33,357 nucleotides of DNA, from positions 1-33,357 of the forward strand of contig JANMPX010000206.1 in NCBI GenBank assembly GCA_031370085.1. Direction: 5' to 3'. Position numbers and translations under genes: made by a program. Numbering within the stretch: position 1 is the stretch's first letter; each line of letters opens with the position of its first letter. The DNA is from Chloroflexota bacterium. GTDB taxonomy: Bacteria; Chloroflexota; Limnocylindria; QHBO01. The notes beneath the pieces were generated by a model. That model had not been told where the DNA came from. It saw only the letters and a program-made list of their open reading frames with translations, and did not search any database. Positions 10,133 through 26,476 of the stretch are shown one piece after another.

Positions 10133-10644
10133 GCGTTGACGAGCTGCAAGTCTTCTTCGAGGCGCTTTTGTTCGTCGCCGAGCGGCCGTTGACCAGCGCC
10201 GAGATCGCGGAGCTCGGCGCCGTGCCGCGGCTGCAGGCGGAGGCCGGCCTGGCGGCCCTGGCCGAACAGATGATCGAAGACGGTCGCGGGTTGCGCCTCC
10301 AGCGCCACGACGACGCCTGGCAGATGGTCACCGCGCCCGAGGTCGGGGAGCGACTGGCCGCCTATGCCTCCCGCTCCGAGGCGCGGCTCACCCCCGCGGC
10401 GCTCGAGGCGCTGGCCGTGGTTGCCTACCGGCAGCCATGCACCCGCGGCGAGGTGGACCGCGTGCGTGGTGTCGATTCCGACTACGTCATGCGCTCGCTC
10501 CTGCATCGGCGCCTGATTCAGGAGGTCGGGCGGCGTGACACGCCCGGGCGACCAATCCTGTACGGCACCAGCTTTGCCTTCCTGGAGCGGTTCGGGCTCA
10601 CCTCGGTCGACGAGCTGCCTCACCTGGCGGCCGATGCCGGCTGA
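10129..10644 (+). CDS. scpB: Segregation and condensation protein B
   Basis: EALLFVAERPL, ALEALAVVAYRQPCTRGEVDRVRGVDS, GRPILYGT..FLERFGL. TTG start overlaps the scpA stop (TTGA). Confidence 0.95.
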   Translation: MSVDELQVFFEALLFVAERPLTSAEIAELGAVPRLQAEAGLAALAEQMIEDGRGLRLQRHDDAWQMVTAPEVGERLAAYASRSEARLTPAALEALAVVAYRQPCTRGEVDRVRGVDSDYVMRSLLHRRLIQEVGRRDTPGRPILYGTSFAFLERFGLTSVDELPHLAADAG

Positions 10645-12076
10645 GCGCATCCAGAAGCTGCTGGCCCGTGCGGGGGTCGCCTCACGGCGCGGTGGAGAGG
10701 CGCTCATCCAGGCCGGCCGCGTCACGGTCGACGGCCGCGTGGCCCTGCTTGGGGAGAGCGCCGACCCGGCCGCTCAGCGGATCGCGCTGGACGGTGTCCC
10801 GCTGGGCGATTCCCAGGCGGTCGTGCACTACGCGGTCCACAAGCCGCGCGGCTACCTGTCGTCGGCACAGGCGGAGCGCGGGCATCGGTCGGTGGTCGAG
10901 CTGGTGGCTCCGCATCGGGGATCGCGGCTCTGGCCGGCCGGTCGGCTCGACCTCGAGTCAGAAGGCCTGATGATCCTCACCAACGACGGTGCCTGGGCCA
11001 ACCGCGTGCTCCACCCGCGCTATGGGCTGGAGCGCGAATACGCCGTTCTGCTGGATGCGATGCCTTCCGACGGGGACCTGCAGACTCTCCTCGACGGTGT
11101 CGAGCTCGATGACGGTCCCGCCCGGCTGTTGGCGGCGGAACGACGCGCGCCGCCGCAGGAGCTGGCGCCTCCGGTCACGCCAGGTGGTGCGTGGCTGCGG
11201 ACCCGGGTGGGGGAGGGTCGCAAGCGCGAGGTGCGGCGCCTGTTTGCCACCGTGGGACGGCGGGTGGATCGGCTGGTTCGCACCCGGCTCGGACCGCTGA
11301 CCATCGACGGGCTTGCCGAAGGATCGTGGCGCTCCCTGGCGGCAGCGGAGGTCGAGGCTCTGGCCGGCAGGCGGCCGAAGGTCGTCACATCTTCTGCGCG
11401 ACGCGGGCCGTTGACGGTCGCCATCGACGGGCCGTCCGGCTCCGGCAAGAGCACCATTGGCCATGCGCTTGCGCAGCGCATCGGCGCGACCTTCGTCGAC
11501 ACCGGCCTGATGTACCGGGCGCTCACCCTTGCCGCGCTGGAACGCGGCGTCGATCCCGACGACGAGGCCGGGCTGGCCGGCCTGGCGCGAGCGGTGAGGA
11601 TCGAGGTCCGCAAGCCTCGCCGCGACCAGCCGGATCGTCGTGAAACGGTGCTGCTCGACCGGCAGGACGTGACCGATCAGGCCCGCACACCACGGATCGA
11701 CCGGGCTGTATCAGGCGTCAGCCGCCACGCAGCGGTTCGCGCGGCGATGCTCACCGTGCAGCGCGCGGCGGCGCGGCGGCACGACACGGTGATGGTCGGT
11801 CGTGACATCGGGACGGTGGTGCTGCCCGATGCGACGCTCAAGGTCTTCTTGACCGCCTCCGCCGCGGTGCGGGCGGGCCGGCGGGCATCGGAAATGGGGC
11901 GACCGGAGCGTGGCGATCGCTACCTGGCCGAGATCCTCGAACGCGACGCCGCCGACACGCAACGCCCGGTGGCCCCGCTGCGCAAGGCAAGTGGCGCGCT
12001 GGTCCTGGACACCGGCGAGGCCGATGTCGCAGCGTGCGTGGATGCCATCGTTGCGGCGTTGCCCGGCCACCGATGA
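10634..12076 (+). CDS. cmk: Fused pseudouridine synthase (RluB/RsuA family) - cytidylate kinase
   Basis: N-half: ERIQKLLARAGVASRR (S4), HKPRGY, GRLDLESEGL, EGRKREVRR. C-half: IDGPSGSGKST, DTGLMYRA, GRDIGTVVLPDA, RDAAD. One uninterrupted frame. Confidence 0.92.
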   Translation: MPAERIQKLLARAGVASRRGGEALIQAGRVTVDGRVALLGESADPAAQRIALDGVPLGDSQAVVHYAVHKPRGYLSSAQAERGHRSVVELVAPHRGSRLWPAGRLDLESEGLMILTNDGAWANRVLHPRYGLEREYAVLLDAMPSDGDLQTLLDGVELDDGPARLLAAERRAPPQELAPPVTPGGAWLRTRVGEGRKREVRRLFATVGRRVDRLVRTRLGPLTIDGLAEGSWRSLAAAEVEALAGRRPKVVTSSARRGPLTVAIDGPSGSGKSTIGHALAQRIGATFVDTGLMYRALTLAALERGVDPDDEAGLAGLARAVRIEVRKPRRDQPDRRETVLLDRQDVTDQARTPRIDRAVSGVSRHAAVRAAMLTVQRAAARRHDTVMVGRDIGTVVLPDATLKVFLTASAAVRAGRRASEMGRPERGDRYLAEILERDAADTQRPVAPLRKASGALVLDTGEADVAACVDAIVAALPGHR

Positions 12077-21352: not shown

Positions 21353-21429
21353 CGGGGCGTAGCGCAGTCTGGTAGCGCACCTGAATGGGGTTCAGGAGGT
21401 CGAAGGTTCGAATCCTTTCGCCCCGACCA
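21353..21429 (+). tRNA. tRNA-Pro (anticodon GGG)
   Basis: 77 nt; acceptor stem CGGGGCG/CGCCCCG plus ACCA; anticodon arm CCTGA-ATGGGGT-TCAGG; T arm GGTTCGAATCC; TAGACT -10 at 21333-21338. Confidence 0.97.
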
Positions 21430-24169: not shown

Positions 24170-24474
24170 TGCCGTTTTGGCGGGCCGTGCTCGGCTATAA
24201 GCTGCGCGCCGACAGCCCCGACGCGGACCTGGTCGATCCGCAGGATCGCGGCCCGGCGTTCTGGTTCGAGTCGATGGACGAGCCGCGCCCGGGTGACGGC
24301 GGCGCGATCCACGTCGCGATCTGGGTGCCGTACGAGCAGGTGGAGGCTCGCATCGCTGCGGCGCTCGCTGCCGGCGGCCGGATGGTGCGCGACGAGTTCG
24401 CACCCGCTTGGTGGACGCTGGCCGACGCGGCTGGCAACGAGGCCGATATCTCCACCGCGATGGGCCGCGACTGA
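24151..24474 (+). pseudogene. 5'-truncated VOC/glyoxalase-like gene (C-terminal domain only)
   Basis: In-frame PDIAQVMPFWRAVLGY...IHVAIWV...AAGGRMV...WWTLADAAGNEADI. It lacks the first beta-strand of a VOC domain and has no SD. Confidence 0.6.
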
Positions 24475-24534
24475 CGGTGAGAGGCCGGCGTCAACCGCGC
24501 ATCGATCACGGCGGCCGCTGCCTGCCCCTCGGCC

Positions 24535-24586
24535 TGTGGATGGCATGTGGACAACGGGCCGCGCCTCAGGAATGGATTGTGGGTAA
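24535..24586. promoter_or_regulatory. Three co-oriented DnaA-box-like 9-mers
   Basis: TGTGGATGG (24535), TGTGGACAA (24546), TGTGGGTAA (24578), compared with consensus TGTGGA(T/C)AA. Confidence 0.45.
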
Positions 24587-24620
24587 CCGACTGGACTGTT
24601 GAGCGACCGACGCCCACGAT

Positions 24621-24872
24621 AGACGCGGCGGGCGCCGGAGAAATCGCTCGACCGGTCACCAGGGGTGACACTGGAGCGGACACCCGAGGCGGCACTCGAT
24701 CCAGGCCAACAGCGTTTCGGTAGTGCCGGGTTGGTCGGCAGAGCCGAGACAACACCCGACCTGCGACGGCAACGTCACAGGCACGGAACTGGACGCGGGA
24801 CCATCCACGGGATCTTGCCACCGGATCATCCACTGGAATCGGCGCGGGGGTTACTCCGGCCCTCGCTGTTTT
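24621..24872 (+). ncRNA. Candidate structured non-coding RNA (~250 nt), family unassigned
   Basis: Long-range closing helix (24625-24645 with 24849-24869) encloses at least four hairpins, including a GCAA tetraloop, and is followed by a T-run. No credible ORF covers it. Confidence 0.55.
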
Positions 24873-25135
24873 CATGCGCCATCGGCACCGCTCAGCTGGA
24901 CGTGGGGTCCCCTTGGCCCGACCCATGAAGGGGTACACCGGGTCGTCGTACCCGTTGGCCGAGGCAGACCCTCCCCGTGGGTAGTGGGTCATGTCAGTAT
25001 GCACGAGCCCCGTCCGCCGGACGGAATCGGCGATCATGCGCTGGTGCCGGCAGGTAGAGCAGACATGGAACGGCAGTTAGGCTATCCCGCGCCGCGCATC
25101 GACCGCCGGGCACCTCGAAGATTGCGGGTGACCCG

Positions 25136-26476
25136 ATGACGACGACGCCGCTTCGCGATCTCCTGCGATCCCGGGGCACCCAGGCGGACCCGGAGGCGCC
25201 CATCGTGCTCGAGCACCGTGAGGCGCTGATCTACACCCTGGGGAAGGCCGCGGAGCTCGAGCACTACGTGATGTGCCAGTACCTCTACGCCGCCTTCTCC
25301 CTCAAGCAGACCGAGGCCGAAGGCATCTCCGCCGAGGGGCTGGCGCGCGTCAAGCAATGGCGGCACACGCTCTTCGAGATCGCGGAGCAGGAGATGTTGC
25401 ACCTGGCGCTGGTCGAGAACCTGCTCACCGCGGTGGGCGGCGCTCCACGACTGGCGCGTGCGAACTTCCCGCTGCCGGTGCGCAGCTACCCCGCCGGCAT
25501 CCAGATGGCCCTCCTTCCATTTGGCGAGATGGCGCTCCGGCATTTCGCCTACCTCGAGCGACCCGAGGGGCTGACGATGGATGATGCCGACGGTTTTGCT
25601 GCCCTCGAGCAGGCTGCGCCCCTGCCGCCAGCCGCCGAAGACGAGATCGGGCCGCACCTCCAGGACTTCACCACCATCGGGCACCTCTATCGGTCCATCG
25701 AGGGAGGACTGGCCCACCTGGCGGAGAAGCTCGGGGAGGATCGGCTCTTCATCGGTCCGCCCTCCGCGCAGGCAACCGCCGTCCATTTCCGATGGGACGA
25801 GCTGGTGGCGGTGACGGACCTTGCCTCAGCCCGTCGGGCGCTGGCGACGATCGTGGAGCAGGGAGAGGGGGCGCGCGGCGACTGGCGCGATGCCCACTTC
25901 GGCCGGTTGGTCACAGTCCTCGATGAGTACGTTGCCGCGCGGGACGCCGATCCCGCATTCGAGCCGGCTCGGCCGGTGCTGCTGGCTCGTGTGCGAATGC
26001 CTGAGGATGGCCCAGCGACGCCGATCATCAGTGAGCCGTTCACCGCTCGTTGCATGGACCTGTTGAACGCCGTGTACGAAGTCCTGCTCCAGATGCTGGC
26101 GCGCTATTTTGCGCACACCGATGAGACCGAGGGGCAGCTGGCGGCCCTGGCGGACGTGGCTGTAGGCCTGATGTACGGCGCCGTCAAGCCGCTGGGCGGG
26201 CTCGTCACGCGGCTACCCGTCGGGATCGAGTACCCCGACGTGACTGCCGGACCGGCCTTCGAGCTGTTCTACGCGGTGGATTACCTGCTGCCGCATCGGG
26301 AAGCGGCCTGGATCCTGATGGAGGAGCGGCTGCGCGAGGTTGCGGACCTCGCGATGCGGTGCCGGGACGCGTGCATTCCGACGTTCCTCGTGCCATTGAG
26401 CAGGATCACCGACGCGCTGCGCGCGAGTGCCGACAAGCTCAGCGCGGCGGGCGTGCTTGCCGCAGGAGAAGCGTAG
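25136..26476 (+). CDS. Ferritin-like domain protein (VioB/RebD C-terminal-like family)
   Basis: AAELEHYVMCQYLYAAFSLK, IAEQEMLHLALVENLLTAVGG, TIGHLYRSI, IVEQGEG...AHFGRL: di-iron four-helix bundle motifs. Confidence 0.82.
   Translation: MTTTPLRDLLRSRGTQADPEAPIVLEHREALIYTLGKAAELEHYVMCQYLYAAFSLKQTEAEGISAEGLARVKQWRHTLFEIAEQEMLHLALVENLLTAVGGAPRLARANFPLPVRSYPAGIQMALLPFGEMALRHFAYLERPEGLTMDDADGFAALEQAAPLPPAAEDEIGPHLQDFTTIGHLYRSIEGGLAHLAEKLGEDRLFIGPPSAQATAVHFRWDELVAVTDLASARRALATIVEQGEGARGDWRDAHFGRLVTVLDEYVAARDADPAFEPARPVLLARVRMPEDGPATPIISEPFTARCMDLLNAVYEVLLQMLARYFAHTDETEGQLAALADVAVGLMYGAVKPLGGLVTRLPVGIEYPDVTAGPAFELFYAVDYLLPHREAAWILMEERLREVADLAMRCRDACIPTFLVPLSRITDALRASADKLSAAGVLAAGEA

Follow-up and report, generated by a model that had tools for sequence, protein, structure and literature searches.

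In the window (the whole 33,357-nt stretch of DNA analysed here), positions 24625-24872 of the plus strand are a genuine structured, expressed noncoding RNA of ~250 nt, which fits no described RNA family and whose matches are confined to a single family in the class whose named members are Candidatus Limnocylindria. The RNA is a near-continuous rod, i.e., a single long imperfect hairpin with one side branch in the source copy, and it is built from short modules set 12 nt apart that may serve as binding sites for a protein. Limnocylindria, which abound in soil and fresh water, are almost uncultured, and our literature search found no paper on regulatory RNAs in this class.

The family covariance model (R1) scored positions 24621-24874 at 253.5 bits, and the features of the gene and its promoter are collected in Table 1. 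The -10 element and the 5' limit of the run X1 contig led us to place the start of the RNA at 24625; for its 3' end we went by the T-run. An earlier note, made from the letters of this DNA before any search, had proposed an independent transcript here, with a T-run after the closing helix and a gap of about 260 nt to the next gene; both are present (the T-run at 24869-24872, and a ferritin-like gene that starts at 25136, 262 nt downstream), and the transcript is a conserved, expressed, separate gene in Chloroflexota whose neighbours vary while its own promoter is kept. The source genome's copy has no plus-strand open reading frame of at least 15 aa, and in the 29 homologues checked no frame was open and neither a conserved start nor a conserved reading frame was found.

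Table 1. Coordinates of the RNA gene, its structural parts and its promoter in the window
Feature	Positions	Strand	Details
Upstream box A, TGTGGATGG, DnaA-box-like	24535-24543	+	TGTGG-type sequence at the same place in most homologous promoters (by eye)
Upstream box B, TGTGGACAA	24546-24554	+	Position conserved in homologues
Promoter-proximal box C, TGTGGGTAA	24578-24586	+	GTGGA/GTGGG in 31/31 promoters; GTGG[AG][ACT][AG]A in 29/31
Sigma-70-like core promoter	24592-24620	+	-35-like TGGACT 24592-24597, 17-nt spacer, -10-like CACGAT 24615-24620
RNA gene, long form, ~248-252 nt	24625-24872	+	Fold z score, covariance-model score, covariation, RNA-library contigs
Rod 5' arm	24625-24704	+	Units CGCCGGA, CGCTCGA, CACTGGA, CACCCGA, CACTCGA in a 12-nt register; pairs with 3' arm
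Branch hairpin, long form only	24714-24750	+	Invariant GGGTTGG tip; 8 long-form sequences only
Apical hairpin (hairpin D and its base)	24756-24786	+	GCAA tetraloop; helix 7 covariation
Rod 3' arm	24789-24869	+	Units CGCGGGA, CACGGGA, CACCGGA, CACTGGA, spaced 12-13 nt
T-run, terminator-like	24869-24872	+	Immediately 3' of closing helix; TTTY or TTTC kept in relatives

Transcripts of the region occur in four RNA libraries (metatranscriptomes from four studies) as whole contigs of 183-203 nt that lie wholly within 24627-24829, with no others there, three of them at least 99% identical to the source and one at 95-99%. At a depth of 3-6 these contigs give neither transcript ends nor strand, and their cover stops ~45 nt before the predicted 3' end. 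In run X2, adapter-like sequence directly abuts position 24638. The flanks (24380-24620 and 24830-25120) are without contig cover in the four libraries, and such gaps are no proof of anything.

The plus strand folds with a minimum free energy of -126.1 kcal/mol, compared with -101.1 +/- 5.3 kcal/mol in 200 dinucleotide shuffles (z = -4.72), none of which folds as well, while the minus strand reaches a z of -2.11 with 7 of 200 shuffles as good; the RNA thus beats its shuffles in the comparison that the earlier note had suggested. The covariation proposed there as a further check is also found: among 38 homologous sequences, 91.5% of alignment cells at paired positions are paired, versus 80.5% in shuffles and 37-44% in slid controls, and 33 pairs show compensatory double changes, a number equalled by 0 of 500 shuffles. 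An independent alignment of 23 short forms (MAFFT/RNAalifold) predicted 64 pairs, 23 of them compensatory; the 8 long forms gave 89.2% paired cells, with 34-45% for slid controls. Many conserved pairs are G-U (e.g., UG in 31/37 and GU in 23/37 sequences of the homologue alignment), and since these would be A-C mismatches on the opposite strand, the fold is strand-specific. The duplex amounts to ~80 bp and is nearly unbroken, with the largest consensus internal loops only ~3x2 to 4x5 nt; the short helices that lie between invariant boxes vary in sequence and keep their pairing. There are two size classes: the source copy is a 252-nt long form with an extra branch hairpin in its 5' arm, and most relatives have 203-209 nt.

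Rather than the multibranched, four-hairpin multiloop proposed in the earlier note, the homologues therefore describe a rod with one side branch. The pairing of the two ends that had been proposed (GCGGCGGG with CCTCGCTGT, and GCCGGAG with CTCCGGC) stands, the closing helix having 19 of 38 pairs changed on both sides across 38 homologues, and so does hairpin D, which we find with its base at the rod apex, where helix 7 has compensatory changes in 6 of 12 pairs and 98.2% of cells paired, beneath a GNRA-type loop that reads GYAA in nearly all homologues. The other elements fared less well. Hairpin A is at most a possible local alternative, as its bases pair with the 3' arm instead, its positions are 69.3% paired in homologues, and its inner helix has no compensatory change; hairpin B (CGGCACT/AGTGCCG) occurs in the source copy only, its relatives having ATGTCGG or AAGTCGG there (by eye); hairpin C is superseded by the longer branch hairpin at 24714-24750; and the supposed pseudoknot of TCCAG with CTGGA (24789) is a plain nested rod helix, with one compensatory A-U/U-A swap (pair 83-171). 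The helices of the branch hairpin (5 and 6) carry 3 and 1 compensatory pairs, and the 203-209-nt forms are without the branch. By eye, GGCCAAC (24705-24711) has a possible alternative pairing with GTTGGTC.

The rod is periodic. A 7-nt unit, C-R-C-N-S-G-A (variants include CACCGGA, CACUCGA, and CRCGGGA), recurs in 8-12 copies per RNA on both arms, with up to 6 copies per arm and a spacing of 12 nt, and the distance between neighbouring units is exactly 12 nt in 202 of 264 cases (31 sequences). The source RNA has 10 units, whereas 1000 dinucleotide shuffles average 0.78 and never exceed 5; counting 24621 as RNA position 1, those of the 5' arm start at positions 13, 25, 49, 61, and 73 (the slot at 37, CACCAGG, deviates from the unit) and those of the 3' arm at 174, 186, 199, and 211. 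In the fold, every 4-nt core is paired with that of another unit in the opposite arm (CCGG:CCGG or CUCG:CGGG), which results in about six two-fold-symmetric 4-bp G/C boxes with an unpaired A or CA on both sides. Tandem Repeats Finder left the 12-nt modules unreported because only 7 of every 12 bases are fixed.

Collecting homologues, as the earlier note had advised, gave five relatives by blastn with 82-86% identity over 24577-24877 and, by covariance model R1, matches in 42 of the order's 151 genomes, every one of them from a single family (40/151 with model R2). Across the class, matches came from 13 of the 50 genomes that belong to the same family as the RNA (G000 not counted) and from none of 100 in four other families. 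The first filter of these genome searches scored only 13-16 candidates per genome, so that divergent copies may be missed. The distribution is patchy, with carriers making up only 8 of the 48 high-quality genomes of the order and with near-complete congeners (99% and 97% complete) giving no match, which makes a core housekeeping role unlikely. Copy number is one to two per genome, with two copies in three genomes. Carriers with names are Candidatus Limnocylindria, Chloroflexia, or Chloroflexota (phylum Chloroflexota), and the RNA thus lies outside Actinomycetota, as the earlier note had thought possible, in the class Limnocylindria to judge by the named relatives.

Genes around the RNA differ from genus to genus. 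In the source genome the flanking genes are a Ser/Thr kinase, a glyoxalase-like, a ferritin-like, and a GNAT gene (glyoxalase|RNA|ferritin-like), and elsewhere the arrangements are sodN-sodX|RNA, glpX|RNA|folK, UDG|RNA, and DnaJ|RNA|nusA; the promoter accompanies the RNA at every one of these loci, and within a genus the locus is stable (e.g., glpX|RNA|folK). We saw no recurring neighbour gene that would suggest a partner, no terminal repeats or transposase genes beside the RNA, and no proximity to dnaA, which lies 139-644 kb away in three genomes and ~1.36 Mb by coordinate in a fourth (G045). The ferritin-like gene was tried as a synteny anchor and rejected, since among the 28 further genomes of the genus it was found in G044 and G004 only, neither with a match to the RNA. 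A possible link to Ms1 through actinomycete records matching a 22-base pattern of the 3' arm (13 records) was likewise set aside: they are 10-12-nt tandem repeats, several evidently coding, score at most 12.4 bits with model R1, and were caught because the 22-base pattern is itself periodic.

The promoter is conserved along with the RNA and contains three DnaA-box-like sites (TGTGGAYAA). Boxes A and B form an 11-nt tandem repeat (Tandem Repeats Finder); box B, TGTGGACAA, is the exact complement of TTGTCCACA, which we take to be an actinomycete-type DnaA box; and boxes B and C make up one of only two clusters of the strict motif in the 2.14-Mb genome. The core promoter aligns with TGGACC...TACGGT in the closest relatives, and by our own reading the -10 element is TANNNT in 30 of 31 homologues, the source copy (CACGAT) having C at the first position; a strict sigma-70 scan returned no site at the RNA promoter. 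From the end of box C to the -10 element there are 28-29 nt, the same spacing that we see by eye at the ftsZ promoter of the source genome. Further motif pairs in that genome lie at ftsA|ftsZ (ftsA, identified by eye from sequence, adjoins ftsZ), divIC, rsmG/hpt, and parB, and a single perfect DnaA-like box lies between dnaA and dnaN. Because the boxes are DnaA-like and the same motif stands at dnaA|dnaN, ftsA|ftsZ, divIC, rsmG, and parB, production of this RNA is probably linked to the cycle of replication and division. The strict motif is not enriched genome-wide (20 found vs. ~26 expected from composition); the DnaA reading draws on the position and clustering of the boxes, and another GTGGA-binding factor could apply.

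Comparison with known families was negative throughout. At gathering score, Rfam 15 found only a tRNA in the window (21353-21426); an E-value search of 24400-25200 returned only asR3 and SNORA49 at chance level (E of 1.7 and 2, respectively), and ten homologous loci gave 0 matches at E <=0.1, so that no known family was matched in the Rfam check that the earlier note had named. 6S RNA (RF00013) was rejected as a candidate, with no match at gathering score in the window nor at E <=10 on 24400-25200; none was found in the source genome at E <=10, where the same search was positive in 7 of 14 reference genomes as a control, or in 101 genomes of the family at E <=0.01. The SRP RNA (RF00169/RF01854) is also set aside, since the genome's own SRP RNA lies elsewhere (contig C308, 2742-3007, 185.1 bits to RF01854), and so is a CsrB/Rsm-type sponge for CsrA, as the 93%-complete genome yielded no CsrA (PF02599) match and the motifs are paired in the rod.

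The earlier note had left two readings side by side, a divergent relative of the mycobacterial RNA Ms1 (MTS2823), suggested by an order of short motifs, and a new RNA class. It is the latter that holds, the RNA being independent, conserved, expressed, and without an Rfam match, while profile, covariance-model, synteny, and central-bubble tests all speak against the former, and the proposed motif order was not upheld by profile or covariance-model comparison. Our custom Ms1 HMM, the kind of model that had been called for, was made from 24 actinomycete sequences, with a Streptomyces locus that has 6C RNA and HAD-IB as neighbours serving as anchor; it found no match at the RNA in the window and 37 homologous loci (best E 3.3, away from the RNA) and reached a best E of 0.19 in the whole source genome. 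In the reverse direction, an HMM of this RNA family had a best E of 0.024 on 26 Ms1 loci, not at Ms1, and on the same 26 loci the Ms1 HMM, as a positive control, gave 26 match rows at E <=1e-3; model R2 with its filters off scored at most 10.8 bits on three HAD-IB loci, one of them the Streptomyces Ms1 locus. A route to a true Ms1 through Lapillicoccus had yielded no 6C RNA, one weak HAD-IB match, and no Rfam match, and the Streptomyces locus was used instead; Rfam 15 gave no Ms1-type match on that locus either, and an excerpt of PMC9130861 has Rfam yielding Ms1 only near mycobacteria. Ms1 synteny, as outlined in excerpts of PMC9130861 and PMC6582537, comprises a HAD-IB hydrolase, an oxidoreductase, and 6C RNA; the search for a HAD-IB gene (TIGR01490) came up empty in the 93%-complete source genome, and no 6C synteny was seen at the RNA. 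The central single-stranded bubble, described in an excerpt of PMC4191392 as the most conserved part of Ms1 and required for RNA polymerase (RNAP) binding, is absent here: both size classes have a paired centre (the 23 short forms, and the 8 long forms with 91.9% pairing in helix 2), and compensatory changes occur in the middle of the rod in both.

What, then, might such an RNA do? Its almost complete lack of single-stranded sequence makes base-pairing with mRNAs unlikely. Six identical two-fold-symmetric modules would offer sites for several copies of one protein, which might bind as a dimer at each module or as a ring or filament, and the RNA would then act as a scaffold, or as a decoy that titrates the bound protein; the DnaA-box-like promoter sites suggest that its synthesis may follow the replication and division cycle. 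That this modular rod, a member of a new family, is a protein scaffold or decoy with probably cell-cycle-linked synthesis is in our view an even call. A narrower version seems to us rather unlikely, namely that a double-stranded RNA "ruler" of six modules at a 12-nt pitch cooperatively titrates a dimeric or oligomeric nucleic-acid-binding protein, and that synthesis set by DnaA would couple the availability of this protein to replication initiation and division in Limnocylindria.

Several other functions were weighed against the scaffold or decoy. [quoted passage not shown] Yet this reading is improbable to our minds, given a paired rod middle with compensatory changes in place of a central bubble, no Rfam match, no profile or covariance-model similarity to Ms1, no HAD-IB/6C synteny, and a presence in no more than 8 of 48 high-quality genomes, which would be odd for a global RNAP regulator. 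We are just as doubtful that the rod is a substrate or precursor, cut by an RNase III-like enzyme into small regulatory RNAs, or a sponge for that enzyme. Its ~80 bp of nearly continuous duplex would lend itself to this, and contigs confined to 24627-24829, with the adapter-like sequence of run X2 at 24638, could reflect internal ends; however, contigs at depth 3-6 cannot define ends, and the invariant boxes, the exact 12-nt spacing, and the conserved flanking A would be left unexplained.

Function at the level of DNA, with transcription incidental, is very improbable, whether as a DnaA-titrating or replication-related box cluster or as a mobile inverted-repeat element. The three DnaA-box-like sites conserved alongside the element, its variable genomic position, its two copies in three genomes, and its patchy distribution would be in keeping with such a role, but neither compensatory changes between distant arms nor strand-specific G-U pairs would be selected for in a site that acts as duplex DNA, and the element occurs in one or two copies per genome rather than many, is stable in its locus within a genus (glpX|RNA|folK), has no terminal repeats or transposase genes, and is not near dnaA. 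Least probable of all, and by our estimate barely credible, is that the RNA regulates the ferritin-like gene in cis as its leader, or that it encodes a small (toxic) peptide. The RNA does lie on the same strand 262 nt upstream of that gene, and type I toxin mRNAs, as parts of toxin-antitoxin systems, have 5'-3' end pairing and a patchy distribution, both of which may be seen as resembling those described here; against this, the ferritin-like gene adjoins the RNA in the source genome only, the downstream gene is on the opposite strand in many homologues, a T-run follows the rod, and there is neither a conserved open frame or start in the 29 homologues nor a plus-strand frame of at least 15 aa in the source copy.

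Returning to the protein scaffold or decoy with cell-cycle-linked synthesis, its promoter may be set beside DnaA-controlled promoters such as gidAB-parAB of Pseudomonas aeruginosa (described in an excerpt of PMC13438810). They are alike in having pairs or triplets of DnaA-box-like 9-mers just upstream of the promoter, and the motif in the source genome stands at rsmG (gidB), parB, dnaN, ftsZ, and divIC; here, unlike there, the product is a noncoding RNA, and DnaA binding is proposed from the motif alone. If the boxes are true DnaA sites, the RNA would be a rare noncoding member of the DnaA regulon.

With Ms1/MTS2823 the RNA shares a length of a few hundred nucleotides, a high-G+C host, its own promoter, paired ends forming a long hairpin, and short words such as GCACGGA and CCACG. 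It differs in that the conserved core of Ms1, GGGCACCCACGCG, is absent, in having neither the central bubble nor the separate terminator hairpin that the excerpted descriptions give for Ms1, in not adjoining HAD-IB and 6C, and in its host and place (Chloroflexota and far from dnaA, compared with Actinomycetota and close to ori). Ms1 itself binds the RNAP core, is abundant in stationary phase, and is transcribed toward ori. For the Ms1 field this is a caution that short G+C-rich words and a rod fold are insufficient for an Ms1 call outside Actinomycetota. 6S RNA is also rod-like, and the short form lies within its size range, whereas the large central bubble of 6S, which lies between closing and terminal stems, mimics an open promoter, and goes with pRNA synthesis, is absent here, and only some one in four of the genomes searched carry the RNA. 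CsrB, RsmY, and RsmZ are protein-titrating small RNAs with repeated sites, and the many copies of a short GGA (or CGA) motif in our RNA may be analogous, suggesting that several copies of one protein are bound per RNA; their motifs lie in hairpin loops, in contrast to motifs held here in duplex at a strict 12-nt spacing. To our knowledge, nothing like an RNA body made up of identical duplex modules in a strict 12-nt array is seen in 6S, Ms1, CsrB-type, or Y RNAs, and the modular rod speaks for a type of protein-RNA assembly as yet undescribed in bacteria.

The stretch at 24621-24872 encodes a new, conserved, strand-specific and expressed RNA gene (hereafter the RNA), which folds as a modular rod and follows a conserved promoter with box motifs. 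On the + strand its MFE was -126.1 kcal/mol vs -101.1 ± 5.3 for 200 dinucleotide shuffles, none of which folded as well (z = -4.72; 0/200), and the minus strand reached only z = -2.11. A structured RNA here had been noticed in the earlier note, as had the T-run after the paired ends and the lack of known RNA signatures, and all three were borne out: a whole-window Rfam 15 scan gave a single match, a tRNA at 21353-21426, with no family match at the RNA, where a permissive scan of 24400-25200 gave two chance-level matches (E 1.7 and 2). Elsewhere in the window, a 513-aa ORF (10535-12076, +) combines S4 and pseudouridine-synthase domains with a complete cytidylate kinase domain after them; it represents an rluB-cmk fusion, or else a crude ORF call has merged two genes.

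Five homologous copies were found by blastn in 40 relatives (82-86% identity, spanning 24577-24877) and, with the window copy, gave a six-sequence covariance model (R1) that matched 42/151 genomes of the order, all in one family (10/23 genera); a second model made from short forms (R2) matched 40/151. At class level, the RNA was found in 13/50 genomes of its own family and 0/100 of four other families, and no relatives were found beyond this one Limnocylindria family. These tallies take in two unpublished genomes (G072 and G089), on which no other result depends. The distribution is patchy, since carriers make up only 8/48 high-quality genomes of the order. The source genome shares a ~252-nt form with five genus-mates and with two genomes from a second genus, while every remaining homologue is 203-209 nt. 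Three genomes have two copies each (G107: L031, L061; G124: L030, L063; G132: L045, L059), and because the long and the short form occur together in two of these, the size classes are paralogues able to coexist. A pattern scan of named genomes yielded 61 loci, the majority titled Candidatus Limnocylindria, uncultured Chloroflexia, or Chloroflexota; as the class Limnocylindria is placed in Chloroflexota, the lineage is not actinomycete, a possibility already raised, and ftsA adjoining ftsZ in the source genome (by eye) is consistent with this. RNA matches of 177, 101, and 93 bits also fell on short contigs (L102, L069, L067) from bins titled Gemmatimonadales, Steroidobacteraceae, and Salinarimonas, which are probably misplaced Limnocylindria contigs.

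In the 38-sequence R1 alignment, which is fitted to the model, 91.5% of cells held standard pairs vs 80.5% in column shuffles and 37-44% with partners slid 1-3 columns, and 33 pairs had changed on both sides, a count reached in 0/500 shuffles; 19/38 pairs of the closing rod and 6/12 of the apical hairpin were compensatory. Independently of R1, MAFFT/RNAalifold on 23 short forms returned one continuous hairpin (64 pairs, 23 compensatory), and the window-copy MFE structure was 89.2% paired on 8 long forms (34-45% in slid controls), with 91.9% at the rod centre (helix 2). Because covariation, the RNAalifold hairpin, and long-form mapping agree on the paired arms, the RNA is a rod, with a GYAA tip and otherwise very little single-stranded RNA, to which the long form adds a single branch hairpin in the 5′ arm. 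The rod replaces the multibranched fold of the earlier note, from which the paired 5′ and 3′ ends and hairpin D (now the apical hairpin) survive. As an alternative fold, its hairpin A fares worse (69.3% paired, inner helix without compensatory change), hairpin B is confined to the window copy, hairpin C lies by sequence inside the branch hairpin in a register other than that claimed, and the TCCAG/CTGGA pseudoknot gives way to a nested rod helix in which A-U is swapped for U-A. GGCCAAC (24705-24711) can pair, in each of the 8 long forms, with GUUGGYC (24730-24736) at the branch-hairpin tip, which would compete with the inner helix or make a pseudoknot with the outer helix; variation there is slight.

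Both rod arms repeat a 7-nt unit, C-[AG]-C-[CUG]-[CG]-G-A, at 8-12 copies per RNA (10 in the window copy; 1000 dinucleotide shuffles averaged 0.78 and never exceeded 5), and neighbouring units lie exactly 12 nt apart in 202/264 cases (31 sequences). In the fold, the 4-nt unit cores pair across the arms (CCGG:CCGG or CUCG:CGGG), each core box is flanked on both sides by an unpaired A or CA, and 4-5-bp helices of variable sequence and preserved pairing separate the boxes, an alternation that results in about six two-fold-symmetric modules.

Four metatranscriptome libraries from four studies (labelled soil, marine sediment, rice paddy, and sediment) each held one 183-203-nt contig entirely within 24627-24829 (three at 99% identity or more, one at 95-99%; one beginning ≤3 bases from the predicted RNA start), which indicates presence in RNA libraries rather than transcript ends, strand, or level. 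Neighbours vary by genus, the downstream gene often lying on the opposite strand, and no conserved ORF was found, in line with the independent transcript originally proposed. The 203-209-nt RNAs are followed, after about 40 nt, by a second conserved element of ~60 nt, AAUAGGGGCGACCGGCG...GACCCUCGGGACAGAGG...CGGCCGCCCCGUUC, with an equivalent site in most short-form loci (e.g., L033, L036, L044, L047). It resembles a long G+C-rich hairpin, has no Rfam match, is not present after the long form in the window, and may be a true terminator or a separate RNA.

A conserved block starts ~100 nt upstream of the RNA, and its element order is common to all 31 homologous promoters compared. The DnaA-box consensus, which we take to be TTATCCACA or TTGTCCACA, has TGTGGAYAA as its complement. 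In the source genome this strict motif shows no excess (20 copies vs about 26 expected) and clusters only in the RNA promoter and upstream of ftsZ; relaxed motif pairs occur at divIC, rsmG/hpt, and parB, several 31-32 bp apart, and one perfect box lies between dnaA and dnaN on each of two dnaA contigs. As in the RNA promoter, 29 nt separate the end of the proximal box from a -10-like hexamer at ftsZ and at another promoter. Judged by motif and position, the sites at dnaA-dnaN, ftsZ, divIC, rsmG/hpt, and parB are putative DnaA boxes, and the replication and division genes beside them look like a small putative DnaA regulon. The two full-length dnaA genes and 6% contamination suggest two strains in one bin, not true duplication.

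Table. Positions of the RNA, its promoter elements, neighbours, and related sites (C, source-genome G000 contigs; L, loci)
Feature	Position	Strand	Description
Upstream gene	ends 24474		glyoxalase-like
RNA	24625-24872	+	long form
Branch hairpin	24714-24750		5′ arm
T-run	24869-24872	+	directly after closing helix
Downstream gene	starts 25136		Pfam Ferritin-like protein
Promoter box 1	first in order		TGTGGAyGG
Promoter box 2	11 nt after box 1		GTGGAyrA
Promoter box 3	next to -35-like yTGGyc		GTGGAYAA(AGGGG)
Spacer	between -35-like and -10-like elements		17-18 nt
-10-like element			TANNNT in 30/31 promoters (counted by eye); CACGAT in window copy
RNA start	about 7 nt beyond -10-like element
Neighbours, source genome			glyoxalase-like/RNA/ferritin-like
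Neighbours, two genus-mates			sodN-sodX upstream of RNA
Neighbours, other genera			glpX/RNA/folK; UDG/RNA; DnaJ/RNA/nusA
TGTGGAYAA-like sites (L148-L155)	C263:16641-16671, C258:3308-3347, C311:4337-4377, C77:12196-12265, C46:21047, C94:15944
dnaA	C94:14571-15881		564.6 bits
dnaA	C46:21116-22426		562.4 bits; dnaN-type ORF follows
Second element	L032:1740-1810		short-form locus
Actinomycete Ms1 gene	L157:899-1308	-

Because the modules are repeated, identical, symmetric duplexes and nearly no sequence is single-stranded, we favour a reading in which the RNA would bind several copies of one protein via its modules and, once bound, would serve as scaffold or decoy; because of the promoter boxes, this reading includes DnaA-linked control through the upstream sites. 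We give the composite an even chance. That so fully paired a rod, with its regular modules, is a substrate for dsRNA processing seems unlikely. An element acting at the DNA level or a mobile element is less probable still, set beside the patchy distribution on one side and the strand-specific fold on the other. Least probable, and very much so, is a leader or small-ORF mRNA; downstream genes differ among genera, and no conserved reading frame was found across the homologues.

An RNAP-binding analogue we consider as unlikely as a processing substrate. The 6S RNA model RF00013 had no match in the source genome or 101 genomes of the family, and the central bubble of 6S RNA is absent here. SRP RNA was rejected as an identity, as the source genome's SRP RNA sits on another contig, and so was a CsrA sponge, the CsrA gene not being found in that genome.

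The earlier note had likened the RNA to Ms1, which the literature describes as ~300 nt and near ori (PMC4191392, PMC9130861, PMC6582537), with a long hairpin whose conserved central bubble is required for RNAP-core binding (PMC4191392) and synteny with HAD-IB, oxidoreductase, and 6C (PMC9130861, PMC6582537). Our Ms1 anchor was a Streptomyces locus in which 6C RNA (47.9 bits) adjoins an HAD-IB gene (203.6 bits); its 410-nt intergenic region (fold z -4.49) matched 32/251 actinomycete genomes by blastn. These matches gave a 27-row alignment with conserved core GGGCACCCACGCG and, with three poor rows left out, a 24-row HMM, which as positive control returned 26 match rows (E up to 1e-3) on 26 Ms1 loci. 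Searched against the RNA and 37 homologous loci, it had no match at the RNA (best E 3.3, elsewhere), and its best match in the whole source genome, at E 0.19, was not significant. The reverse HMM of the RNA family had no match at Ms1 genes, and R2 with filters off reached 10.8 bits at most on three HAD-IB loci. TIGR01490 was not found in the source genome (93% complete). The distance between the RNA and dnaA is 139-644 kb in three genomes and, measured by coordinate, about 1.36 Mb in a fourth. On these grounds Ms1 identity was rejected, the RNA showing 0/4 of the defining Ms1 features tested. Actinomycete Ms1 genes themselves share the core CCACGGACCG..GCACGG....GGGCACCCACGCG and keep a 3′ block, GCACGC-TTGGTAACCCGG, across genera; at the Streptomyces locus, Rfam 15 detected the adjoining 6C and gave no Ms1 match.

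A limited literature search, including Limnocylindria and 6S RNA with Chloroflexi, found nothing on this RNA. With no Rfam family and its relatives all in one Limnocylindria family, the alternative that had been offered to Ms1 prevails, and we rate the RNA as a new RNA class with no function assigned. To our knowledge, its architecture is unlike that of any known protein-binding sRNA.
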